This document shows, one piece after another, positions 708 to 46,164 of a stretch of DNA of 64,000 bases. The notes under the pieces are model-generated. The model saw only the letters and a program-made list of their open reading frames with translations. It did not search any database and was not told the DNA's origin. Origin of the DNA: an uncultured bacterium (GTDB lineage: Bacteria > Krumholzibacteriota > Krumholzibacteriia > JACNKJ01); contig CAZVHI010000005.1 in NCBI GenBank assembly GCA_964627205.1, positions 46,595-110,594 of the forward strand, given 5' to 3'. Each line of letters begins with the position of its first letter. Position 1 is the first letter of the stretch. The translations under genes and the position numbers were made by a program.

Positions 708-1718
708 ATGCGTGAACGAACAGCAAACACGAATTCGGGGCAGGGGGAAGTCGCGACGAGGATCGTCGCGCACGATCTCCGCCACCATCTCGCACTCCTC
801 GCCTGCGACCTCGGTCTGACACGCGAGCGCCTGCGGCGGAGGGAGCGGCCCGTGGCCGAGCTCTACCCGCCCCTGCTGCTGCGGCTCGCGGCCGGACTCG
901 TGCAGGCGGATGAGCTGCTGGCGGGCCGGCGGCCGGTGTCTCTCCGCGAGCGCGACTCCGGCGATTTCACCCCCCTGCTCCGGGAGCTCTGGCAGCGCTT
1001 CCTAGACGCGGGACGCCTTCGCCCCGAGAGCAGCGAACTGCACCTGACTGGTCCCCTGCGCTGGCCCGGCGAGCCCGTGCAGCACCATTCGCTGCTCCTT
1101 AACCTGCTGACGAACGCCTGCGAAGCGGCGCCGGACGGACCCGTTCTCCTGACGGCGGATCCAACCGGGCTGCGAGTGGAGAACGGCGGCCGGGGTCTGA
1201 CTCCGGAGCTGGTCGATCAACTGAACCACGGCCGCGCGCCCGCCCCCGCGAGCGGGCGGGGCCAGGGGCTCGGGCTGATCCTGCGCGGCGCCTCCGAGCT
1301 GGGCCTGCGTCTGCAGGTCGAGACCGGCGCGTCGCGGACACGCTTCGTCCTCGCGCGCGAGGATCCGGATGCACCAGCCCTTCTCCTCGTGGAGGACGAC
1401 GACGAGCTCCGCGTCATGTTGACCGAGCTCTTCCGCAGGGAGGGCTGGCGCGTCGAGGAGAGACGCGGGGACGAGGAGACCGAGCCCCGCGCCGGCGCCT
1501 ACCGGGTCGTCGTCGCCGACCTGAACCTGCCGGCCCAGGGCGGCGACCACTTCCTGTCCGCGTGGAAGCGTGTCGATCCCGCGGCCCACACGCTCCTGCT
1601 CACCGGCGAGAGCGAGGCGTCCGAGCGCCGCCATGACGGAGTGGACGCGGTCGTCATCAAGCCGGGGCTGCAGCGCCTCCTCGCAATCCTGGCGACGCTG
1701 CGGGAGAGCGCGCGATGA
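708..1718 (+). CDS. Cytoplasmic hybrid sensor histidine kinase (DHp H-box + HATPase_c + C-terminal receiver domain). No sensor or TM region.
   Basis: H-box VAHDLRHHLALL near the N-terminus. HATPase motifs LLNLLTNACEAAPDG, ENGGRGL and GRGQGLGL. REC domain LLLVEDDDELRVML...VVVADLNLP...LLLTGE. The TGA overlaps the next ATG (ATGA at 1715-1718). Confidence 0.75.
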   Translation: MRERTANTNSGQGEVATRIVAHDLRHHLALLACDLGLTRERLRRRERPVAELYPPLLLRLAAGLVQADELLAGRRPVSLRERDSGDFTPLLRELWQRFLDAGRLRPESSELHLTGPLRWPGEPVQHHSLLLNLLTNACEAAPDGPVLLTADPTGLRVENGGRGLTPELVDQLNHGRAPAPASGRGQGLGLILRGASELGLRLQVETGASRTRFVLAREDPDAPALLLVEDDDELRVMLTELFRREGWRVEERRGDEETEPRAGAYRVVVADLNLPAQGGDHFLSAWKRVDPAAHTLLLTGESEASERRHDGVDAVVIKPGLQRLLAILATLRESAR

Positions 1719-2959
1719 TCCTGGACCTCAGCCTGGGTGTCGTCTGCCTGCTCCTGCTCGTCTCGTCCGCCTTCTTCTCCGGCTCCGAGACGGCCCTCTT
1801 CGCGCTCGACCCGCATCAACGCCACGCCCTCCGCAAGCGGCACGACCTCCCCGCGCGCCGTGTGGCCACCTTGCTGGGCGACCTGGGCGACCTGCTCGCC
1901 ACGGTGCTCGTCGGCAACACCTTCGTGAACATCCTTCTGGCCGTCCTGGCCACGCGACTCCTGATCCGCCACTTGGGCCCGGTCCGCGGCCCCGTGATCA
2001 GCGGTTTTGCAGTCACGGCGCTCGTCCTGCTCTTCGGCGAGATTCTGCCCAAGAGCGTGGCGGTGCGCGGCCCCCTCGGCTTCAGCCTGCGGGTCTCCGG
2101 CCTGCTCACGCGCCTCTGCGCCGCGATGCGTCCCCTGACGCACGTCCTGCTGCGCCGCAGCCGCGGACTTCTCTCGTGGCTGGAGCGGATCCTCCCCGGC
2201 GACGACCTGGACATGCAGACCGACGACATGTTCGCCCTGCTGGGCCTGGCCGTAGAGGAGGGCGGCATCGGGCAGAAGGAGCGGGAGCTGGCGCGAGGAG
2301 TGCTCGACCTGGGGCAGACGCAGGTTCAGGATGTGATGACGCCGCGGGTGGACGTCTTCCTGCTCGAGGCGGAGACCGCGGCGCGCGATGCGACCCTCCC
2401 GGTGCGCGAGGCTGGCTACTCCCTGCTGCCTCTCTACGAGGGGTCGCCCGACCACGTGGTGGGGGTCCTGTCCGCGGTCGCCCTCCTCGATCACGAAGAT
2501 GATGCGCGGCCCGTGGGATCCCTGGCGACGCCACCCCGCTTCTGCCCCGAGAGCCAGAACGCGGGCGCTCTGCTCGTCGAGCTTCTGGAGGAGGGCGAGC
2601 GCCTCGCCGTGGTTCTAGATGAGTACGGCGCCCTGGCGGGACTAACTACGCTCGAGGACCTCTACGAGCTTCTCGTGGGCGACGTCCTCGACCACCGCGA
2701 CTACATCAGTCAACGCTTCTACATGCCGGACGAGAACACGCTCGTCGCCTCGAGCCGTATGGAGCCCGAGCGCGTCGAGGAGCTGCTGGGCCTGAAGCTC
2801 GTCGGCCACGACGTGGAGACCCTGGGCGGCTACCTGATGGCGGCCCTCGGCGAGGTGCCCGAGAGGGGGCGGCGCTACGAGCTGGGCCGGGTGGCCTGGA
2901 CCGTGCTGAGCGCCAAGGGGCCCGCGCTGGGGACCGTGAAGCTGGAGCGTCTACGATGA
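1715..2959 (+). CDS. CNNM/DUF21 transmembrane domain + CBS pair + CorC_HlyC protein (TlyC/CorC family hemolysin-like divalent cation transporter).
   Basis: N-terminal 4-TM DUF21 (FFSGSETALFAL, GEILPKSVA). CBS pair (VQDVMTPRVDVF..., VLDEYGALAGLTTLEDL). C-terminal CorC_HlyC-like tail. Confidence 0.85.
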   Translation: MILDLSLGVVCLLLLVSSAFFSGSETALFALDPHQRHALRKRHDLPARRVATLLGDLGDLLATVLVGNTFVNILLAVLATRLLIRHLGPVRGPVISGFAVTALVLLFGEILPKSVAVRGPLGFSLRVSGLLTRLCAAMRPLTHVLLRRSRGLLSWLERILPGDDLDMQTDDMFALLGLAVEEGGIGQKERELARGVLDLGQTQVQDVMTPRVDVFLLEAETAARDATLPVREAGYSLLPLYEGSPDHVVGVLSAVALLDHEDDARPVGSLATPPRFCPESQNAGALLVELLEEGERLAVVLDEYGALAGLTTLEDLYELLVGDVLDHRDYISQRFYMPDENTLVASSRMEPERVEELLGLKLVGHDVETLGGYLMAALGEVPERGRRYELGRVAWTVLSAKGPALGTVKLERLR

Positions 2960-3993
2960 ACGCCTGGCTCTGGCTGCTCCTGGGCTCCCTGCTGGCCAGC
3001 GGCTTTTTCTCGGGCAGCGAGACCGCTGTCGTCTCCAGCAGCCGCCTACGGCAGCGAGCCGCCCGCGAGCGCGGCCGTCTGTTCGCGGGCCTCGCCGAGC
3101 GTCTCCACCGCCGCCCCGAACACACACTGGTCGTTCTCCTGCTCGGAACCAACCTCGCCAACGTCCTGGCCTCCATCAGCGCGCTGATGATCACCGAGAG
3201 GGGACTCCATCGCCTGGGGCTCAACCTGCCGGCATTCTGGAGCGACCTGCTCTCTTCGCTCTGGGTCGCGGCCCTGGTACTCGTGGCGGGCGAGGTCCTC
3301 CCCAAGAACCTCGGCCGTCTCTACGCCCTCCGCATCACTCGCTTCACGGCACCGCTCCTGCTCGTCCTCAGCGCGCTCCTCCGCCCGCTGTTCTGGCTCT
3401 TCGATCTGATCGGACGTCTCCTGCGTTTCCTGACCGGCCGCGGCTTCGGCAGACAGCAGGCCGGCGTGTCCTGGGAGACGGTGCGCCTGCACCTCGATGC
3501 CGGGCGCGCGCAGGGCGTGGTGGGCGAGCGTGAGGACCTGCTCATACGTCGCGTCGCCCTGCTCAACCGCCTGACGGCGGAGTCGCTGATGACGCCCCTG
3601 GCTCAGCTCGACCCCTACCCGGTCACGGGGACCCTCGCCGGTCTCCGGCGCCGCCTGGCGGAGAAGCGGGCGTCCTGGAGCTTTCTCTACGAGGGCCGGC
3701 CGGAGAATCTCGTGGGTTTGCTGCCCGCCCGTCGCCTCCTGGCCCAGCGGGAGGGGATTGCGCTGGGCAACCTGGCCACCAAGCCACGTCGCGTGCCGGC
3801 CCATCGTCCCCTCCTCGACCTCATCGACGAGCTCCAGCTCACGCGAAGCAAGCTGGCCGTGGTGACCGATCTGGCGGGACATTGCCTGGGTGCGGTCTTC
3901 CTCGAAGATCTCCTGCGGCAGCTCGTCCACTTCCGCAGAGCTGACCAGGGGACGGTGAACGGGATTCACCCCGTTCGCGTTACTGAAAAGTGA
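2956..3993 (+). CDS. Second CNNM/DUF21 + CBS-domain membrane protein. It is a paralog of the upstream gene and lacks a clear CorC_HlyC tail.
   Basis: FFSGSETAVVSS and GEVLPKNLG motifs, with CBS-like segments. The start overlaps the upstream stop (ATGA). Confidence 0.75.
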   Translation: MNAWLWLLLGSLLASGFFSGSETAVVSSSRLRQRAARERGRLFAGLAERLHRRPEHTLVVLLLGTNLANVLASISALMITERGLHRLGLNLPAFWSDLLSSLWVAALVLVAGEVLPKNLGRLYALRITRFTAPLLLVLSALLRPLFWLFDLIGRLLRFLTGRGFGRQQAGVSWETVRLHLDAGRAQGVVGEREDLLIRRVALLNRLTAESLMTPLAQLDPYPVTGTLAGLRRRLAEKRASWSFLYEGRPENLVGLLPARRLLAQREGIALGNLATKPRRVPAHRPLLDLIDELQLTRSKLAVVTDLAGHCLGAVFLEDLLRQLVHFRRADQGTVNGIHPVRVTEK

Positions 3994-4043
3994 GTAGTGT
4001 TTACCGGAATCACCAAGCGCAAATTAGAGATAGCGAAAATATC

Positions 4044-4072
4044 TTGCAGAAATCGCTCATATCTCGTATTTT
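4044..4072 (+). promoter_or_regulatory. Putative sigma70-like promoter (TTGCAG-17-TATTTT) in an AT-rich island upstream of the XRE-cupin operon.
   Basis: The 3994-4117 region is strikingly AT-rich for this genome. It contains the hexamers and a flanking inverted pair GTGAGTA(3991)...TACTCAC(4082). Confidence 0.35.
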
Positions 4073-4117
4073 TCAGATTACTCACCTCCTCTCGAAACAT
4101 CAGCAAGGAGCCGCTTC

Positions 4118-4684
4118 ATGGAACAGCTCGGTAAGATCGAGATCGGAGAGCGGATCAAGCGTTACCGTCTCGAGAAGAAGCTGACCCTGAAGGAAATCGA
4201 AGCCCTCAGCGGCGTGTCGGCCACTCACATCTCCGAGATCGAGCGCGGCAAGTCGAGTCCCACCGTGGGTGCTCTGGCGAAGATCGCCCGAGCCATGGGG
4301 AGCGAGGCTTCCTACTTCGTCGAGGCCGACGAGCTGCCGCAGGTGAGTCTGGTGCGCCAGAACCAGAGGCGACGCTATCGTTTCATGGAGCCTCCCGTGG
4401 CGATCGAGTCTCTTTCGGGGATCGTGCCGCATTCACGCATGTCCGTCATGCTCATGGCCTGGGATACGGGCGCAGTCGCCACCGGCGAGGTGAACCGGCA
4501 CGAGGGCGAGGAGTTCATCCTCGTGCGCACCGGCATCCTCGAGGTCTACGTCGAGGACGAGCGGCACATCCTCAAGGAGGGCGACAGCCTCCACTACCAC
4601 GCCTCCAGCCCGCATCGGATCGAGAACATCGGAGATTCGGTCTGCGAAGCGCTGGTCGTCACCGTGCCCAGCTTCAAGATCTAG
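4118..4684 (+). CDS. XRE-family HTH + C-terminal cupin transcriptional regulator.
   Basis: HTH segment LTLKEIEALSGVSATHISEIERGKSSPT. The cupin domain ends ...GDSLHYHASSPHRIENIG. RBS AAGGAG is upstream. Confidence 0.85.
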   Translation: MEQLGKIEIGERIKRYRLEKKLTLKEIEALSGVSATHISEIERGKSSPTVGALAKIARAMGSEASYFVEADELPQVSLVRQNQRRRYRFMEPPVAIESLSGIVPHSRMSVMLMAWDTGAVATGEVNRHEGEEFILVRTGILEVYVEDERHILKEGDSLHYHASSPHRIENIGDSVCEALVVTVPSFKI

Positions 4685-4694
4685 GAGGGGAGCG

Positions 4695-5264
4695 ATGGAG
4701 ATCCAAGAACTCGGCGCGCGCATCAAACGGATTCGGAAAGCGCGCAGCCTCACACTCAAGGACATCGAGGCCCGCAGCCATGTCTCCGCCACGCACATCT
4801 CCGAGATCGAGCGCGGCAAGACCAGTCCCACGATCGGCGCCCTGGCCCGCATCGCGACCGCACTGGGCAAGGACACGGCTTTCTTCCTCGAGACCCAGAA
4901 CCTGGACGACGTCAGCAGGATCAAGTACGAGGATCGCGAACGCATCCCCTTCAAGACCACAAAGGGCTACTATCAGCCCCTGACCCACGGCATCCCCGGC
5001 GGGCGTCTGCAGGCCTATCGCCTGCACATCGAGCCGGGCGGTATGGTGCAGTACAGCCATCCTGCCCAGGAAGGGGAAGCCACGGTCTACATCGAGCAAG
5101 GCGAGGTGCTGTTCTCCGTGGAGGAGGAGCATCACAACATGAGCGCCGGCGACAGCATGCACTTCACGGAGATCTTCGCCCCGCGCATCGAGAATCCGTC
5201 CAAGAGCGAACCTGCCGATCTGACTCTGGTCAGCACGAGGCGGCACAGCCTCGACGAACTCTAG
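4695..5264 (+). CDS. XRE-family HTH + cupin transcriptional regulator (tandem paralog).
   Basis: LTLKDIEARSHVSATHISEIERGKTSPT is near-identical to the upstream gene's HTH. Cupin domain GDSMHF. RBS GGAGGGGAG. Confidence 0.85.
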   Translation: MEIQELGARIKRIRKARSLTLKDIEARSHVSATHISEIERGKTSPTIGALARIATALGKDTAFFLETQNLDDVSRIKYEDRERIPFKTTKGYYQPLTHGIPGGRLQAYRLHIEPGGMVQYSHPAQEGEATVYIEQGEVLFSVEEEHHNMSAGDSMHFTEIFAPRIENPSKSEPADLTLVSTRRHSLDEL

Positions 5265-5272
5265 GAGGCCAC

Positions 5273-5635
5273 GTGGGTAGCAGAGCCGAGCCCGATATCG
5301 TCTTTCTCAGCTTGCTGCTGAATCTGCAGGGCGCCGCCCTGCAGCAGATGGGCAAGATGGCCAGCCCGCTCACCGGCGAGGTGGAACGGAATCTCGCGAT
5401 GGCGAAGCAGTCCATCGACCTGCTCGAATGCCTGGACAGAAAGACCAAGGGGAACCTGAGCGAAGACGAGGAGAAGACCTTCCAGGAGATCCTCACCCAC
5501 CTGCGGCTGAATTACGTCGCCGAGCTCCAGCAGGAGCAGCAAGAGGGCGGGGAAACGGGCGAGGGGGACGAGGACGCGGAGAAGGAGACGAGCTCCGGCG
5601 GCGATAGCGAGGACGCTGCCACCGCGGGGGACTGA
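5273..5635 (+). CDS. DUF1844-like small acidic protein.
   Basis: FLSLLLNLQGAALQQMG...NLAMAKQSIDLLECLDRKTKGNLSEDEEK matches the DUF1844 pattern. The C-terminus is acidic. GTG start after AGGAGG. Confidence 0.6.
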   Translation: MGSRAEPDIVFLSLLLNLQGAALQQMGKMASPLTGEVERNLAMAKQSIDLLECLDRKTKGNLSEDEEKTFQEILTHLRLNYVAELQQEQQEGGETGEGDEDAEKETSSGGDSEDAATAGD

Positions 5636-6988
5636 ATGCCCCGCCGATCCTCGCTTCGCTGGGTGGGCCTGGCCCTGGCCCTGTTCCTTTCCAGCCTGAT
5701 GCACGCGCTACCCGCCGGCGCCGGCTTCGGCGGTCCCGAGGCGGGCGGGCTGCTGCACGTCCGCAGCACGGACACCGTCGGCCTGGGCACGCTGCGCAGC
5801 ACCCTTTCCCACAGCTACTACTTCCAGGACGTCGGTGAGGACAGCCGCTATCACTTTTCCCTCGGCAGGCTGGGCCTGGCCTTCGGCCTGGGGGACGTCG
5901 GCCACGTCAGCTTCGACAGCCGCGTCCTCGGTGCCATGCGCTTCGCCTCCGTCCAGGATCCGATCCTGTATGACGCGATCGGTGACTCCGACTGGACAGC
6001 AGGCCTCGGCGACAGCGAACTGGGGCTCAAGCTCGTCCTGCCCATGCCCGTGTCGCGTCTGCGTCTCGCCGCCGAGGTTGACCTGCTTCTGCCGACGGGG
6101 GACACGGAGAAGCACTTCAGCGGGGAGAGTCGCGACTACGAGCTGGTCGGCGTGATCAGCATCGACCTGCTGCGAGGCACCAACTTTGTCCCGACGCGCC
6201 TCCACCTGAACGCCGGGCTGCGCGTCAACCGCAATCCCGAGGGGCAGGGCCTGCCGCCCGCGCTCGACCCGTCCGAGTGGAGCAGTCCCTTCCCGCCCTA
6301 CTATCCAGCTCTCGAGGCGGAGGAGTTGATCGACACCCGGCGACAGAGCCTCTACGGCGCGGGGCTCGAGTTCATCGGCACTCGCACACGGCTCTACGGC
6401 GAGTTGACGGTGGAGACGCTCTATCATCTCACCGACCGCTACGCCACGCGGGAGAATCTCTGGCAGCTCGGCCTGGGCTTCCGGACGCGCGGGCCCTGGC
6501 GCCTCGAGCTCTTCGGCGCCTTCGACATCAACCTCTCCCACGACGACTTCGACACCGAGTTCGAGCCGCACTACCCGCGTCTCGTGACGACGGTCGGACT
6601 GAACCGGAGCTGGCAGGTTCTCGCGGGGGATCCGGACCGGGACGGAGTGCGCGGCGACGCCGATCTGTGCCCGGACCGGCCGGAGGACTTCGACGGTTTC
6701 GAGGACGAGGACGGCTGTCCCGATCCCGACAACGACCGCGACGGCGTGCCCGACCTGATCGACCTCGCGCCCAGCCTGCCGGAGGACTTCGACGGCTTCG
6801 AGGACGCGGACGGCCGGCCCGACCTGGACAACGACAACGACGGTATCGCCGACCGGGACGACCTCTGCCCCGACCGTCCGGAGGACTTCGACGGCATCGA
6901 AGACGAGGACGGCTGCCCCGACCGCAACGGCGGAACTGGCGAAGGCGATGCCGAGCCGCGTGGCGACGACTTGCGAGAGCAGGGCTGA
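5636..6988 (+). CDS. Secreted protein: signal peptide, N-terminal predicted beta-barrel-like domain, and C-terminal thrombospondin type-3 (TSP3) calcium-binding repeats. No OmpA C-terminal domain.
   Basis: Signal peptide MPRRSSLRWVGLALALFLSSLMHALPAGAG. Three repeats of CPDRPEDFDG[FI]EDEDGCPDxDNDxDG (DxDxDGxxD motifs). The start is adjacent to the DUF1844 stop (TGAATG). Confidence 0.7.
   Translation: MPRRSSLRWVGLALALFLSSLMHALPAGAGFGGPEAGGLLHVRSTDTVGLGTLRSTLSHSYYFQDVGEDSRYHFSLGRLGLAFGLGDVGHVSFDSRVLGAMRFASVQDPILYDAIGDSDWTAGLGDSELGLKLVLPMPVSRLRLAAEVDLLLPTGDTEKHFSGESRDYELVGVISIDLLRGTNFVPTRLHLNAGLRVNRNPEGQGLPPALDPSEWSSPFPPYYPALEAEELIDTRRQSLYGAGLEFIGTRTRLYGELTVETLYHLTDRYATRENLWQLGLGFRTRGPWRLELFGAFDINLSHDDFDTEFEPHYPRLVTTVGLNRSWQVLAGDPDRDGVRGDADLCPDRPEDFDGFEDEDGCPDPDNDRDGVPDLIDLAPSLPEDFDGFEDADGRPDLDNDNDGIADRDDLCPDRPEDFDGIEDEDGCPDRNGGTGEGDAEPRGDDLREQG
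6660..6925 (+). repeat. Three tandem ~90-99 bp direct repeats encoding the TSP3-like units.
   Basis: The unit ccggaggacttcgacggNttcgaggacgNggacggc recurs near 6680, 6779 and 6869. Confidence 0.7.
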
Positions 6989-7011
6989 CGCAGCGCTGAA
7001 TCGCGCAAGCG

Positions 7012-7887
7012 CTACGATCCCCGGCGCTCTTCCTTCTTGATTTCCTGCCAGTGGGATTCCATTTCGGGGAGGTCGGCGACCTCGAGGCTTCGACCCCCGT
7101 CGCGCAGGCGCCTCTCCATGGCTGCGAAGCGGCGCAGGAACTTCGCGTTCGCTCCGTCGGCCACCTCCTCGGCGTCCATGTCGAGCCAGCGACAGAGATT
7201 TGCGGTGACGAAGAGGAGGTCGCCCAGCTCGTCTCGGATGCGACCGCGGCTCTCGTCCCCGAGGGCGCGCCGGTAGCGGACGGACGGGCTCCCGTCGCCC
7301 GGCGGTGGCGCTTCGGGCAGGCTCTCCAGCTCCGACCAGAGCTCCGCGAGCTCCTCGCGCAGCTTGCTCAGGACGCCCCGCAGGTCGGGCCAGTCGAAAC
7401 CCACCGTGGCGGCGCGGTCCTGGTAGCGATGGCTCTTGGCGAGCGCGCCCATGCTCGCCGGCAGAGGCCGCAGCAGCCCCTCCGCTTCGCCGTTCGCGCG
7501 CCGCTCCTCGCGCTTGACCGCCTCCCACACGTCCAGCTGCGCGTCGGTGTCGCGAGGGGTGGACGCCTCGCCGCCGAAGAGGTGGGGGTGGCGGCGCCGG
7601 AGCTTCTCGTCGATGCTGCGCAGCGCCTCGCCGGGGTCGGTGCCTTGCTCGCGTGCCAGGAGCTGCAGGCCGAACAGCAGCAGATAGGCCATGTCACCGA
7701 GTTCGTTCACCATGCCTACAGTGTCGTTCTGGTCGCAGGCCTCCAGCCACTCGTGGCCCTCCTCGATGGCGAAGCGGGCGACGTCAGCGGAGCGCTGCTC
7801 GCGGTCCCAGGGGCAGCCGCCCTCGGCCAGTAGCGAATCGAGGGTGCGCCAAAGTCGCTTGAGTTCTTCTGTGGGCAGATCGGGCAT
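7012..7887 (-). CDS. mazG: Nucleoside triphosphate pyrophosphohydrolase MazG.
   Basis: CPWDREQ motif, two EExxE-type MazG repeats, and HPHLFGG. Confidence 0.85.
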   Translation of the reverse strand: MPDLPTEELKRLWRTLDSLLAEGGCPWDREQRSADVARFAIEEGHEWLEACDQNDTVGMVNELGDMAYLLLFGLQLLAREQGTDPGEALRSIDEKLRRRHPHLFGGEASTPRDTDAQLDVWEAVKREERRANGEAEGLLRPLPASMGALAKSHRYQDRAATVGFDWPDLRGVLSKLREELAELWSELESLPEAPPPGDGSPSVRYRRALGDESRGRIRDELGDLLFVTANLCRWLDMDAEEVADGANAKFLRRFAAMERRLRDGGRSLEVADLPEMESHWQEIKKEERRGS

Positions 7888-11950: not shown

Positions 11951-12117
11951 CGTGCTTCCATTCCGCCTCCACTCGTCCGCTGATGTTCGAATCTCTCGAG
12001 ATGTTCCTCCCCCATGAGCTGACGAATCATTTGAGGATTGACAGATGGGAATTCCGAGGCTAGGTTTAGACATTAGTAGACCAACAACTCCTAAACTCAC
12101 ATTACCTGGGAGTGATG

Positions 12118-12567
12118 ATGATACTTTCTCGTGCGAGCGAGTATGCGATTCGCGCCATGGTTTATATGGCCGGACGGCAGACCGATGGTCCCATCCAGCT
12201 GAAGGAGATTGCGGAGGCGGAGAACATCCCATTCCATTTTCTCGCCAAGACCATGCAGGTGCTGACTCGCATTCGTCTGGTGAAGTCCTTCCGTGGACCC
12301 CACGGCGGCTTCACGCTGATGAAGCCAGCCGCCGAGATCCATCTTTTCGAAATCGTCAACGCTTTCGACGCCATCAGCCAGTGGGATACGACCTGCGTCC
12401 TGGGGATCAACCCCTGCTCGGATGACGTGATCTGTCCTCTACACGACGACTGGAGTCCGATCAAGGACAAGATCTTCGCCCTGTTCCAGGAGAGGACTCT
12501 CAACACCCTCGTCGGCAAGATCGAGGAGAAGCGTAGAAAGCTCCGCGAGATGGGTATGGCGGGCTGA
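12118..12567 (+). CDS. Rrf2-family transcriptional regulator (IscR/NsrR-like; three clustered Cys suggest Fe-S sensing).
   Basis: MILSRASEYAIRAMVYMAG...LVKSFRGPHGGFTL wHTH, with cysteines at CVLGINPCSDDVICPLH. RBS GGGAG. The track lists 12112 (GTG), and ATG at 12115 or 12118 is likelier. Confidence 0.8.
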   Translation: MILSRASEYAIRAMVYMAGRQTDGPIQLKEIAEAENIPFHFLAKTMQVLTRIRLVKSFRGPHGGFTLMKPAAEIHLFEIVNAFDAISQWDTTCVLGINPCSDDVICPLHDDWSPIKDKIFALFQERTLNTLVGKIEEKRRKLREMGMAG

Positions 12568-26184: not shown

Positions 26185-26916
26185 ATGCACGAGCGGCCCA
26201 TCGTCCTTGCGCCCGAGCTCCACGAATCGCAGCGCAGCTTCGAGCTGACGGGGACGGAGTTCCACCACATCTGCCGCGTGCTACGTCTCCGGACGGGGGA
26301 CGAGCTGGAGTTCCGCGACGGCCGCGGCCTCGTGGCGCAGGCCCGCCTCGAGGGCGTGGAGCGGCGTCGGGCCCGGGCGGCGATCCTGTCCCGCGAGCGG
26401 CCGGAACCCCCCGCGGGACCCGCGCTGCAGCTGGCCCTGCCCTTGCTCAAGGGGCGGCGCCTCGACTGGATCCTGGAGAAGGGGACGGAGCTCGGTGTGG
26501 CGGCCTTCCATCTCTTTCTGAGCCGGCACGGCGTCGTCCGCCGCGAGCGGGCTCCCGAACGATACGCCGAGCTGATCGCCTCGGCCTATTGCCAGTGCCG
26601 GCGACTGATCCTGCCGGAGCTGACGGGTCCGCGTCCCTTCGACGAGCTTCTCGCCGTGGCCCGCGACGAGGACTGGGCGATGGCCTGGGGCGACGAACAG
26701 CTCGCCGGCAGCGGCGGGGGCGCGGCGGACTGGACCATGGAGCAGGGCCGGACCCACCTCGCCTGGGTCGGTCCCGAGGGCGGCTTCGACGACTCGGAGC
26801 GGGAGGCCCTGCGGGAGGCGGGCGCTCTGGCACTGAACCTGGGCCCCCTGCGCCTGCGCTCGGAGACGGCGGCTCTGGCCCTCGCATGCCGATTCCCTTC
26901 GATGGCAGGGAGATAA
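26185..26916 (+). CDS. rsmE: 16S rRNA (uracil1498-N3)-methyltransferase RsmE.
   Basis: PUA-like N-terminus and SPOUT C-terminus. The track ORF 25624.. includes upstream read-through, and the ATG at 26185 gives a typical 243-aa protein. Confidence 0.7.
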   Translation: MHERPIVLAPELHESQRSFELTGTEFHHICRVLRLRTGDELEFRDGRGLVAQARLEGVERRRARAAILSRERPEPPAGPALQLALPLLKGRRLDWILEKGTELGVAAFHLFLSRHGVVRRERAPERYAELIASAYCQCRRLILPELTGPRPFDELLAVARDEDWAMAWGDEQLAGSGGGAADWTMEQGRTHLAWVGPEGGFDDSEREALREAGALALNLGPLRLRSETAALALACRFPSMAGR

Positions 26917-26932
26917 GACGACTTCGGCCGCG

Positions 26933-26961
26933 TTGACAGCTACCCAAAGCGAGCCTATAAT
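26933..26961 (+). promoter_or_regulatory. Perfect-consensus sigma70 promoter (TTGACA-17-TATAAT) upstream of yqeY-cvpA-mutS2-dnaG-rpoD.
   Basis: TTGACA gctacccaaagcgagcc TATAAT. The AT-rich leader continues to the GAGGAG RBS before the ATG at 27022. Confidence 0.6.
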
Positions 26962-27021
26962 GGCTAAGTTTTTACTTTGCACACCCTTCCAATCCCCCAC
27001 AACGAGGAGAATTAGCGCACC

Positions 27022-27468
27022 ATGACCTTGCAGGAAAGCCTGACTGCTGACCTGAAGACGGCCATGAAACAGGGCGAGAAGCTTCGCGTCAGCGTGCTCC
27101 GCATGCTCCGCTCCGAGCAAAAAAACGCGGAGATCGCCAAGGGTGAAGACCTCACGGAACCTGAGCTGCTCGAGCTGCTCTCCCGCTACGCCCGCAAGCG
27201 CAAGGAGTCAGCGTCCGAGTACGAGAAGGGCGGCAGGCAGGACCTCGTGGACAAGGAGCTCGCGGAGTTCGAGATCGTCCAGGCCTACCTGCCCCGGGCA
27301 CTGGGCGAGGAGGAGCTCGCCGTCCTGGTCAGCGAGGTGATCGAAGCGCAGGGGGCCAGCGGCATGAAGCACATGGGGGCGGTCATGAAGGAGGTTCTCG
27401 CCCGCGCGGCCGGGCGGGCGGAGGGCGCCGCGGTAAGCGCCCTGGTGAAGGCCAGGCTCTCCGGATGA
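27022..27468 (+). CDS. GatB/YqeY domain protein.
   Basis: 148 aa. LKTAMKQGEKLRVSVLRMLRSEQKNAEI is the typical YqeY pattern. Confidence 0.8.
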   Translation: MTLQESLTADLKTAMKQGEKLRVSVLRMLRSEQKNAEIAKGEDLTEPELLELLSRYARKRKESASEYEKGGRQDLVDKELAEFEIVQAYLPRALGEEELAVLVSEVIEAQGASGMKHMGAVMKEVLARAAGRAEGAAVSALVKARLSG

Positions 27469-36573: not shown

Positions 36574-37439
36574 GGCGCCTCCTCGCCCAAGGTCTCGCGC
36601 TCAGCGCGTCGCGTCCGACTCGCCCCGTAGAGGAAGGCCGGCCAGAGAAGCAGGATGATGGGCACGGAGTAGAGGAAATCCTGCGTGTGCTCCGGGATCG
36701 GTGTCGTCCCGAGATCGGTCCGGAAGCCGATCTGCTTGAAGGGGACCGCCGAGAGGTAGAGCCACGAGGTTCCACCCACCTCGCACTCGCCGTAGATGTC
36801 GTGAACGTACTTCTCCGGGTTGCCGTAGATCCTGCTCCGCGCGATCTCGACGAGCTCCCGGCGCGTGCCGAAGGCGAGCGCCTCGACGGGGCAGCCCTCG
36901 ACGCACGCGGGAATCTGCCCCTGCTGCAAGCGCTCCGCACAGAAGACGCACTTCTGGATCTTGGGGTTGGCGCTGTGGTACTCGAACTTGGGCACGTCGA
37001 AGGGGCAGGAGATCATGCAGTAGCGGCAGCCCATGCACTTGTCTCCGCGCCAGATGACCGGGCCCCGCCGCGTCTTGTGCATCGCCTGGACCAGGCAGGC
37101 CGACGCGCAACCGGGCTGGTTGCAGTGCATGCACTGCCGCTTGACGAAGAACTCACCCTTTTCCGTCTCGAAGCGGTTGACCACGGTCCACTGGGACGGG
37201 CTCGTCCGCCGTGGCTGAGCGAAGACGCTCTTGTCCTTGATGTCGGGCACGGGGAGGGCGTGGGTTTCCGCGCAGGCCTCCTCGCACTTGCGGCAGCCGT
37301 TGCAGCGCACGGTGTCGACGAGCACGGACAGGAACTCCGTGTCGTCTCCTCGCGCGGGAGCCCGGCCGGAGGCGCGTCCCGGCAGGAGACCCGTCCCCGC
37401 TGCGCCGCCCACCAGTTTGAGGAACTGCCTTCTCTCCAT
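36570..37439 (-). CDS. Tat-exported 4x[4Fe-4S] ferredoxin-type subunit (HybA/NrfC/PsrB/HmcB-like) with a C-terminal TM anchor.
   Basis: Twin-arginine signal MERRQFLKLVGGAAGTG. Four Cys clusters (CNGCRKCEEAC...CP, CMHCNQPGCASAC, CMGCRYCMISCP, CVFCAERL...CVEGCP). C-terminal hydrophobic helix. Confidence 0.85.
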   Translation of the reverse strand: MERRQFLKLVGGAAGTGLLPGRASGRAPARGDDTEFLSVLVDTVRCNGCRKCEEACAETHALPVPDIKDKSVFAQPRRTSPSQWTVVNRFETEKGEFFVKRQCMHCNQPGCASACLVQAMHKTRRGPVIWRGDKCMGCRYCMISCPFDVPKFEYHSANPKIQKCVFCAERLQQGQIPACVEGCPVEALAFGTRRELVEIARSRIYGNPEKYVHDIYGECEVGGTSWLYLSAVPFKQIGFRTDLGTTPIPEHTQDFLYSVPIILLLWPAFLYGASRTRRAERETLGEEAP

Positions 37440-37650
37440 GGCTCTGGAATCTCCTCGTATGGAATGGGACGCGGAAGTTCCCGGATATCATAGTTCAGGG
37501 CCTTTTTAACTTCAATATGAATTCGGGATTTCTTTCTCTAGGATACCTGGATACTTGGGACTGCGCCTCAAACGGGGATCGGAGCAGCATTCGGGGGGGG
37601 GGCAGATCCCCTTGACTCGCAAGCTCTTCGGGCCTAGCCTCGGCCACAGC

Positions 37651-44684: not shown

Positions 44685-45742
44685 GCGGCGAGTTGCCCTT
44701 CGGCCTTCCGCACAACCTGGACTACCGCGGCGGGCGCTTACGCATCCTCGATCAGACGCTCCTGCCCCGGGAGGAGCGCTACGTCGAGGCCACCGACCTG
44801 GAGACGGTGGCAGGCGCGATCGGTGCGCTCCGCGTGCGGGGCGCGCCGGCCATCGGCATCGCGGTGGGCTATGGCCTCTGCGTGGCTCTTGCCGATTTTC
44901 TGCGGCGCGAACCGGGTGCTTCTCTCGGGGCGGCGCGCTCGGAGCTGGTGCGGGTTCGGGAACTTCTTGCCGCCACACGACCGACCGCCGTGAACTTACC
45001 CGCCGCGTTGGCGCGCCTGGAGCGAGTCGAGGCGGAGGTTTGCGCAGACGCTTCGCTGGATGTCCCGGGGCTGCTCGCGGCTATCGAGGTGGCGGCGCGC
45101 GAGCTGCATCTCGAAGAAGCCGACTGCTGCAAGAAGATCGCCGCGGCGGGCCTCGCGCTGCTGCCCGAAGAGGCGACGCTGCTCACCCACTGCAACGCGG
45201 GCCCTCTCGCCACGGGCGGCATCGGCACGGCCCTGGGGATAATACTTCGTGGGCACGAACAAGGGAGGCGCTTCGAGGTCTATGTGGACGAGACGCGGCC
45301 CCTGCTCCAGGGCGCGCGGCTCACGGCCTGGGAGCTCGGCAAGGCGGGCGTGCCCTTCCGGCTCATTCCCGACGGCGCTGCGGCGTCGCTCATCCTGTCC
45401 GGGAAGGTCGACGCTGTGATCGTGGGTGCCGACCGCGTGGCAGCCAACGGCGACACGGCCAACAAGGTGGGCACCCTGCCGCTGGCGCTGGCCTGTGGGC
45501 GCACGGCCGTACCCTTCTACGTGGCCGCGCCCCTTTCGAGCTTCGATCCGGACACCGCCCGCGGCGCGGACATACAAATCGAAGAGCGCGCCGCCGAGGA
45601 GGTGACCCACTTCGCCGGCCAGCTCGTCGCGCCGGAGAGTGCACCCGGGTACAATCCCGCCTTCGACGTCACACCCGGCGAGCTCGTCACCGCCTTCCTC
45701 ACCGAGCGCGGTGCCTTATACCCGCCATATCGATTCCGTTGA
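44681..45742 (+). CDS. mtnA: S-methyl-5-thioribose-1-phosphate isomerase (eIF-2B alpha/beta/delta family, MtnA).
   Basis: LRILDQTLLP...VRGAPAIGIAVGYG...THCNAG...GADRVAANGDTANKVGT. Confidence 0.8.
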   Translation: MSGELPFGLPHNLDYRGGRLRILDQTLLPREERYVEATDLETVAGAIGALRVRGAPAIGIAVGYGLCVALADFLRREPGASLGAARSELVRVRELLAATRPTAVNLPAALARLERVEAEVCADASLDVPGLLAAIEVAARELHLEEADCCKKIAAAGLALLPEEATLLTHCNAGPLATGGIGTALGIILRGHEQGRRFEVYVDETRPLLQGARLTAWELGKAGVPFRLIPDGAAASLILSGKVDAVIVGADRVAANGDTANKVGTLPLALACGRTAVPFYVAAPLSSFDPDTARGADIQIEERAAEEVTHFAGQLVAPESAPGYNPAFDVTPGELVTAFLTERGALYPPYRFR

Positions 45743-46164
45743 TGAATCACTTCAACAGAACGAGATGGGTGTGGTCATGGAGAGTGAAAGCAGAGCGAAT
45801 AAAGCGATCAGCAGGCGCAGACCGAGGAGCGGCTGCGGGCGGGGCTTGGGCATGATCTGTCCTCAAACATTTGAGCAGCATGGAATCCCGACACTGGATC
45901 GGAACGATCGTAGCGGTAACGACGAAACCGAGGTTTCCTTTCCGACATTCTCGTTACTCATATGACTCACGATCTCGCGCAATGATACCACACTGCTGCG
46001 CTTTCCCCATTGGATAGCCAGCTCGATCTTCGCCCGTGTTCGCCAACAGGGTCAATTGCGCTCCGCTCCGTGGGTGGCGTTGACTCCCGCCGGGGCCTGT
46101 GATAGTTTTCCGCCTCAGCGTCAAACCGTTGGAAAACCTGGACCTTCCGCGGAACAAGGAAGTC

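Follow-up and report, generated by a model that had tools for sequence, protein, structure and literature searches.

The gene cluster described here raises the question of whether two duplicated regulator genes and the envelope genes directly behind them form a single regulatory unit. It lies in a 64,000-nt stretch of DNA from an uncultured Krumholzibacteriota bacterium, the whole of which we call the window, and consists of an AT-rich intergenic region (3994-4117) followed directly by four open reading frames (ORFs) on the + strand with gaps of 10, 8 and 0 nt. The first two genes, regA (4118-4684, 188 amino acids (aa)) and its paralogue regB (4695-5264, 189 aa), encode one-component regulators with an XRE-type helix-turn-helix (HTH) and a cupin domain; the third (5273-5635, 120 aa, GTG start) encodes a DUF1844 protein and the fourth, gene 4 (5636-6988), a 450-aa outer-membrane protein. 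An earlier note on this DNA had placed all four genes and their spacing accurately, and had read them as a recently duplicated, possibly heterodimeric regulator pair transcribed together with a calcium-binding envelope module. To answer the question we compared the window with homologous loci from metagenomes and reference genomes, which are referred to by L-numbers. The account that we lean towards, with only slightly more confidence than doubt, is that of a conserved gene cluster containing an ancient regulator pair, in which the tight spacing seen in the window is a lineage-specific operon fusion.

Conservation of the gene order

Of 80 reference-genome loci from Krumholzibacteriota and their allies, 54 have the genes in the order regA-regB-DUF1844-outer-membrane protein gene (OMP). 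In metagenome loci with regulators of down to 38% identity the same order is followed by a convergent MazG gene and then by UvrA, and the wider neighborhood is also syntenic, with lipopolysaccharide-core glycosyltransferase genes (GT9/KdtA) upstream. The earlier note had allowed that no related genome might share this order; it is in fact widely conserved. Identical proteins are present on metagenome contigs, and relatives with 68-80% identity carry the label Candidatus Krumholzibacteria or Krumholzibacteriota. At three loci the OMP gene follows regB directly with no DUF1844 between them (L013:7278-8786, L080:6236-7750 and L096:6224-7702). In Eisenbacteria (L075, L082, L084, L087-L089, L091, L093 and L095) the regA-regB pair is kept, several times with a convergent MazG gene directly after it, and the 5-kb flanks contain no DUF1844 or OMP gene. 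A variation on the arrangement occurs in L048:5591-9351, where two tandem OmpA-family OMP copies stand after DUF1844.

Age of the regulator duplication

Both regulators match the Pfam families HTH_3 (regA 53.1 bits, 3.2e-14; regB 49.3 bits, 5.2e-13; cut-off 23) and Cupin_2 (regA 56.8 bits, 1.8e-15; regB 32.5 bits, 7.3e-8; cut-off 27.2), and the product of the third gene matches PF08899 (82.8 bits, 2e-23; cut-off 27) over profile positions 4-75 of 76, which confirms the domains that had been assigned to them from the sequence. Identity between RegA and RegB is 41% overall and rises to about 67% over the HTH. The earlier description of the two HTH segments as nearly identical is therefore right for the recognition helix, SATH[IV]SEIERG, which is invariant in both paralogue classes, and too strong for the HTH as a whole.

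We took 79 adjacent regA-regB pairs from metagenome and reference-genome loci, Eisenbacteria included. First- and second-position regulators formed separate clades, with 78 of the 79 pairs placed correctly, and mean identity was 0.37 between the two classes as compared with 0.55 and 0.51 within them. The paralogues had therefore split before Krumholzibacteriota and Eisenbacteria diverged, and the recent tandem duplication proposed earlier has to be given up. Gene conversion, or a recent duplication of the HTH segment, was considered and rejected on the basis of this two-clade tree and of a codon test: at the HTH residues shared by RegA and RegB of the window, identical codons were used 20 times against 23.2 expected from codon bias. 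Judged in this way the duplication is ancient and the likeness of the two HTH domains reflects constraint at the protein level, because codon identity is no higher than codon bias predicts. A search for further paralogues of regA and regB in the window found none.

The cupin domains of the two classes have followed different courses. In position-1 regulators the residues H128, E131/E132, H159 and H166 are kept in at least 70 of the 79 orthologues. Most position-2 regulators have the canonical HxH..E..H cupin motif, with H126 and H128 kept in 56 and 59 of the 79 orthologues respectively, and both residues are absent from RegB of the window and of its clade. The losses in this clade extend beyond the HxH of RegB to the OmpA domain of gene 4 and to a separate promoter for DUF1844. 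In a different lineage, L016:1772-6573 carries a row of seven tandem XRE-HTH paralogues, 160-198 aa long and in five cases 190 aa, in which the cupin is barely detectable; this row is followed by DUF4900, pilin, prepilin-peptidase and secretin genes.

Probable fusion of two transcription units in one lineage

The gap between regB and DUF1844 was compared in 64 non-redundant loci, counting a promoter when 10 or more of the 12 consensus positions were matched. In 53 of the 64 loci the gap is 81-470 nt long, and 51 of these 53 long gaps hold such a promoter, of the TTGAC[A/G]-N16-18-TATAGT type and typically consisting of TTGACA or TTGACG, a spacer of 17-18 nt and TATAGT; where the -10 is TATAGT, the promoter ends about 25-30 nt ahead of the DUF1844 start codon. 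In 37 of the 53, regB is followed by a terminator consisting of a GC-rich hairpin and a T-run. Across L025-L079 (for example L026:6139-6282), the gap in most Krumholzibacteriota has a strongly conserved ATTTTCGTTGACAc-N17/18-CTATAGTC that is preceded by an intrinsic terminator. Promoters of this quality suggest that DUF1844 and the OmpA-family protein are expressed constitutively at a high level in most Krumholzibacteriota.

Gaps shorter than 60 nt occur only in the clade of the window (nine loci, monophyletic in the regA tree), where most measure 7-9 nt, and in L072 and L086. No promoter matching 8 of 12 positions or better was found inside 4901-5300 of the window, and no terminator or promoter-like site was found between its four genes; the only terminator-like matches, at 5665-5681 (+) and 6851-6838 (-), lie within gene 4 and are at chance level. 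Because the spacing is 10, 8 and 0 nt, a four-gene operon is likely in this genome. The ends of regA and regB both read CTAGGAGG (4682-4694 and 5262-5272), placing each stop codon inside the Shine-Dalgarno sequence of the next gene, and TGAATG joins the DUF1844 stop to the gene 4 start; these overlaps at the ends of the first three genes are consistent with translational coupling. On this comparison of gaps the tight four-gene arrangement is lineage-specific, and elsewhere the regulators and envelope genes are separately transcribed neighbors. The locus is a clear case in which units that are split by a terminator and a promoter elsewhere appear as one compact cluster in a single lineage, and this lineage-specific fusion of transcription units insulated elsewhere is, as far as gene spacing and signals indicate, one of two features that go beyond the routine.

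The promoter region of regA

The intergenic region 3994-4117 (+ strand) contains the putative regA promoter and 5' untranslated region (5'UTR). The GC content of its 124 nt is 0.427 as compared with 0.675 in the window, and within it the GC content over 100 nt drops to 0.36, the minimum of the entire 64 kb, so its earlier description as an AT-rich island was accurate. It is touched by a single ORF, a mechanical one of 64 aa with a GTG start (3990-4184), which runs out of frame over the regA start. A Shine-Dalgarno sequence, AAGGAG, lies at 4105-4110 (+), 7 nt ahead of the regA ATG.

The earlier note had proposed a promoter-like pair in this region, and both hexamers are present: TTGCAG at 4044-4049 (+) as the -35-like element, where relatives have TTGACC, and 17 nt past it TATTTT at 4067-4072 (+) as the -10-like element, where relatives have TTAyTTT in the same alignment columns. 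In an alignment of the window with eight relatives of its clade, CTTG of the -35 element, TA..TT of the -10 element and a GATA/AAT block just upstream are invariant, and the remainder of the promoter spacer has diverged. The -35 column block reads ATCTTGACC in L007, L015, L017 and L019-L023, with the full form ATCTTGACC-17-TTAyTTT, and in more distant clades the corresponding position is occupied by TTGnAA-17-TATATT or TACTAT. This alignment supports a real promoter at the site first proposed, with a -35 element that has been weakened in the window. Promoter function at 4044-4072 is likely in spite of the window's low match to consensus (given below) because the position is conserved and relatives have TTGACC.

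The other element proposed earlier, an inverted pair GTGAGTA (3990-3996) and TACTCAC (4079-4085) flanking the region, exists as described. It was found only in the same-strain contigs L001-L006, short exact inverted pairs of this kind are expected by chance, and its absence from all relatives led us to reject it as a functional element. A riboswitch or attenuator in the regA 5'UTR was rejected as well: the RNA fold is no better than that of shuffled sequences (z = +1.39), and an Rfam search of 3500-7500 returned nothing relevant.

The extreme composition and the flanking 7-nt inverted pair could also be taken as signs of foreign or degenerate DNA, such as an insertion scar or a mobile-element remnant, with no functional promoter. 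We regard this as highly improbable. A promoter can be aligned at the same position in eight relatives, the inverted pair is confined to one strain, with no nesting of its two word pairs, and the region has neither an ORF nor an Rfam match. Other intergenic regions of the window are also AT-rich, with GC dips of 0.41-0.49 over 100 nt at 11973-12176, 26913-27058, 37413-37596 and 45704-46030. Because of these four further intergenic dips below 0.50, AT-rich intergenic DNA is a trait of this genome and 3994-4117 is its extreme case. The first of the four, 11973-12176, lies just upstream of an Rrf2-type regulator gene, judging from the L001 gene table.

Two candidate operators were read in the promoter. 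Candidate operator 1, at 4028-4044 (+), is an AGATA-N7-TATCT palindrome (AGATAGCGAAAATATCT) that abuts the -35 element; candidate operator 2, at 4048-4064 (+), is AGAAATCGCTCATATCT, which overlaps the -35 element and the spacer and lies 20 nt after the first. The left half of candidate operator 1, GATAGCGAA, is common to two close relatives only (L017 and L019), and AATCGCTC..TATCT recurs in two distant loci, L047 and L050, within the spacer of the promoter. The geometry, two palindrome-like sites of 17 nt placed 20 nt apart, would suit repressor dimers.

Proposed regulation of the cluster

XRE-cupin regulators are described as local repressors that bind palindromes as dimers and are released by a ligand; some of them are autoregulated, and they usually act on neighboring genes (PMC7901475). 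In the account that we propose, the AT-rich region would serve as a sigma-70-type promoter and 5'UTR of regA, and regA and regB encode XRE-HTH and cupin one-component regulators that are ancient duplicates kept adjacent across Krumholzibacteriota and Eisenbacteria. Because their recognition helices are identical and invariant, RegA and RegB would be expected to read the same palindromic half-site, either as homodimers that compete or cooperate at a single operator or in the form of an A/B heterodimer, and their divergent cupins may supply different ligand inputs, possibly metal-dependent ones. By analogy with the characterized XRE-cupin proteins, the most probable role of RegA and RegB is to keep their own promoter and a small number of local targets repressed until they are released by a ligand; for regA, autoregulation would follow from the behavior of the family (PMC7901475). 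In the clade of the window the insulation of DUF1844 and the OMP gene is gone, so that in the window these two genes would be transcribed from the regA promoter and come under any control that RegA and RegB exert.

Several observations weigh against this account. A sigma-70 promoter should match TTGACA-N16-18-TATAAT at 9 or more of 12 positions; a scan of 3700-7300 reports no site, and TTGCAG-17-TATTTT of the window matches the consensus at only 7 of 12 positions. AGATA-N7-TATCT is not more frequent across the window than expected by chance. No operator motif is common to the lineages despite their invariant HTH: a search of 75 non-redundant upstream regions for enriched k-mers and inverted repeats yielded nothing beyond words limited to particular clades, such as TTTTAATTGATT. 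Within a genome, the promoter regions of regA and DUF1844 have no more words in common than do control regions paired across genomes. The compact loci form two groups in the regA tree, the clade of the window and L072/L086, and compaction may be derived or ancestral. Finally, read-through from upstream CNNM genes or unrecognized internal promoters may contribute to transcription of the cluster.

An alternative is that the genes are chance neighbors held together by synteny, with RegA and RegB regulating other targets, DUF1844 and the OMP gene forming a constitutive housekeeping envelope unit, and co-transcription in the clade of the window incidental to intergenic shrinkage. The whole neighborhood is indeed syntenic, from GT9/KdtA upstream to MazG and UvrA downstream; the Eisenbacteria pair adjoins MazG without DUF1844 or OMP; DUF1844 has its own consensus promoter behind a terminator in most loci; and no operator words are common to the regA and DUF1844 promoters. 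DUF1844 also belongs to a far larger family than the regulators: an exhaustive profile search gave 6,692 cluster representatives at E <= 0.001 as compared with about 240 regulator-type HTH matches in reference genomes, and in Deinococcus DUF1844 has been reported as linked to other genes (PMC9425974). By these counts DUF1844 is not specifically tied to the regA-regB pair. However, the adjacency of regB to DUF1844 and OMP persists down to about 38% regulator identity, the OMP gene stands directly after regB at the three loci without an intervening DUF1844 (L013, L080 and L096), and characterized XRE-cupin regulators usually act on adjacent genes (PMC7901475). We consider chance neighborhood possible but rather less probable than the conserved cluster with a lineage-specific fusion.

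The case for the regulatory/envelope module proposed in the earlier note is weakened. The conserved order and the tight spacing in the window stand, but the two halves are separated in 53 of 64 loci, with 51 promoters and 37 terminators between them, and the lack of shared operator words, the Eisenbacteria pair without DUF1844 or OMP and the size of the DUF1844 family weaken the module further.

Pairing of the regulators and comparison with known systems

RegA and RegB resemble known XRE-cupin factors such as Escherichia coli PuuR and Pseudomonas PauR, PsdR and ErfA in having an N-terminal HTH_3 domain and a C-terminal Cupin_2 domain within about 185-190 aa. Over the full length, PuuR (NF007408) is the best NCBIfam match of both, with 60.5 and 34.6 bits; unlike PuuR equivalogs, they fall far below the equivalog cut-off of 211. 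They differ from the Pseudomonas XRE-cupin set in being an anciently conserved pair of adjacent paralogues with identical recognition helices, and the study of that set has no mention of 'heterodimer' or 'paralog' (PMC7901475). Known XRE-cupin loci contain metabolic enzymes or transporters, whereas the neighbors of regA-regB are envelope genes and genes of unknown function.

A parallel for the pairing is found in Bacillus subtilis SinR and SlrR, which are also paralogous XRE-HTH proteins and which form a heteromer that alters target choice, providing a precedent for paired XRE paralogues. The HTH of RegA and RegB matches SinR structures and, weakly, the SlrR model. SinR and SlrR have no cupin and use another oligomerization domain, unlike RegA and RegB, so any homology would be limited to the HTH.

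Two stronger readings build on this pairing. In the first, the two proteins make up an obligate heteromer, fixed long ago, whose subunits have the same DNA-reading head but different sensor cupins and would integrate two signals at one operator; in the clade of the window RegB would have become a non-sensing partner through loss of its metal site, and the pair would have captured control of the Ca2+-binding barrel protein. We think this unlikely; if true, a two-input heteromer would be an architecture not described for the XRE-cupin family. The second, along the lines of the earlier note, is that of an obligate RegA/RegB heterodimer acting as a small-molecule switch dedicated to a Ca2+-binding envelope module made up of DUF1844 and the OMP. 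The constant pairing of the genes (79 pairs), the identical recognition helices combined with divergent cupins, the loss of the RegB metal ligands in the clade of the window, as expected of a non-sensing subunit, and the tight spacing there would all fit such a switch. It is nevertheless quite improbable in our judgment, as the units are split by a terminator and a promoter in most lineages, the Eisenbacteria pair exists without the envelope genes and no operator is shared. Heterodimerization as such may occur. The second feature beyond the routine is this ancient obligate pairing of XRE-cupin proteins with identical DNA-reading heads, which would fit either a heteromer or control by two inputs. 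Should the pairing prove functional, one-component regulators could be seen to gain two-input logic by duplication with their DNA specificity kept, and regulation in an uncultured phylum would become accessible for the first time. Apart from these two features the biology is more ordinary than was proposed earlier: the locus combines a conserved promoter with two XRE-cupin local regulators, a DUF protein and a barrel derived from the OmpA family.

Products of the third and fourth genes

The AlphaFold2 (AF2) model of gene 4, built from a 50-sequence alignment, has a helix at residues 6-22, a barrel at residues 52-327 and a low-confidence acidic tail. The N-terminal hydrophobic helix is read as a putative signal peptide. 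The barrel (5789-6616, + strand) has 12 strands, with a predicted local distance difference test score (pLDDT) mostly above 90, and in fold comparison it matches 12-strand outer-membrane barrels of the COG4313/FapF type. Identity to the COG4313/PF13557 channels and to FapF is only 12-13% with the 12-strand fold in common, and the C-terminal TSP3 extension, with or without OmpA, is foreign to those families. No Pfam domain lies above threshold in gene 4 and PF13557 (Phenol_MetA_deg) has no match in it; only some of its orthologues are flagged for PF13557.

A TSP3-like Ca2+-binding repeat region follows the barrel at 6629-6922 (+), residues 332-429, with DxDxDG motifs at residues 332, 365 and 398, a period of 33 residues. 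The C-terminal tail (residues 326-450) consists of 38% D+E, and the D/G/C/P columns of the repeats are invariant in 50 orthologues. The TSP3 label given earlier holds only in part: the three motifs are present and invariant, but the Pfam TSP_3 score is 6.7 bits against a threshold of 25, which some orthologues with the invariant motifs do pass. The acidic DxDxDG..D..C repeats also give weak NCBIfam matches to the Myxococcus TraB and Pseudomonas PA1041 families.

Most gene 4 orthologues are annotated as OmpA-family proteins with TSP_3 and OmpA domains, those of most Krumholzibacteriota being about 625 aa long and carrying TSP_3 repeats plus an OmpA domain at the C-terminus. Unlike the OmpA family, gene 4 of the window has a 12-strand rather than an 8-strand barrel and lacks the OmpA domain (PF00691), which gave no match even at E = 10. 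Its close orthologues have 440-480 aa and no Pfam domain, and those of the L007 sub-clade only 316 aa. By this comparison of lengths and domains gene 4 of the window is a truncated variant that has lost the OmpA peptidoglycan anchor. The OmpA domain binds peptidoglycan in the periplasm, and the repeats are most likely periplasmic rather than secreted, because in the orthologues they link the barrel to this periplasmic domain. The product had been described earlier as a secreted TSP3 protein; an integral 12-strand outer-membrane barrel takes its place.

The AF2 model of the DUF1844 protein has helices at residues 9-25, 41-58 and 64-95, with a core pLDDT of about 90 and a disordered acidic tail, and the protein contains 26 D+E as compared with 10 K+R. 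A Foldseek search with it returned generic helical bundles only (best E = 0.28). The best 150 of the 6,692 DUF1844 matches are small stand-alone proteins of 81-222 aa, with no fusions among them.

Genes upstream of the cluster

Two tandem CNNM/CorC-type transporter genes with a 4-nt overlap occupy 1715-3993 of the window, the second of them without a CorC_HlyC domain. A response-regulator/HATPase-like gene lies ahead of this pair in L001. The CNNM/CorC block is found upstream of regA only in some clades.

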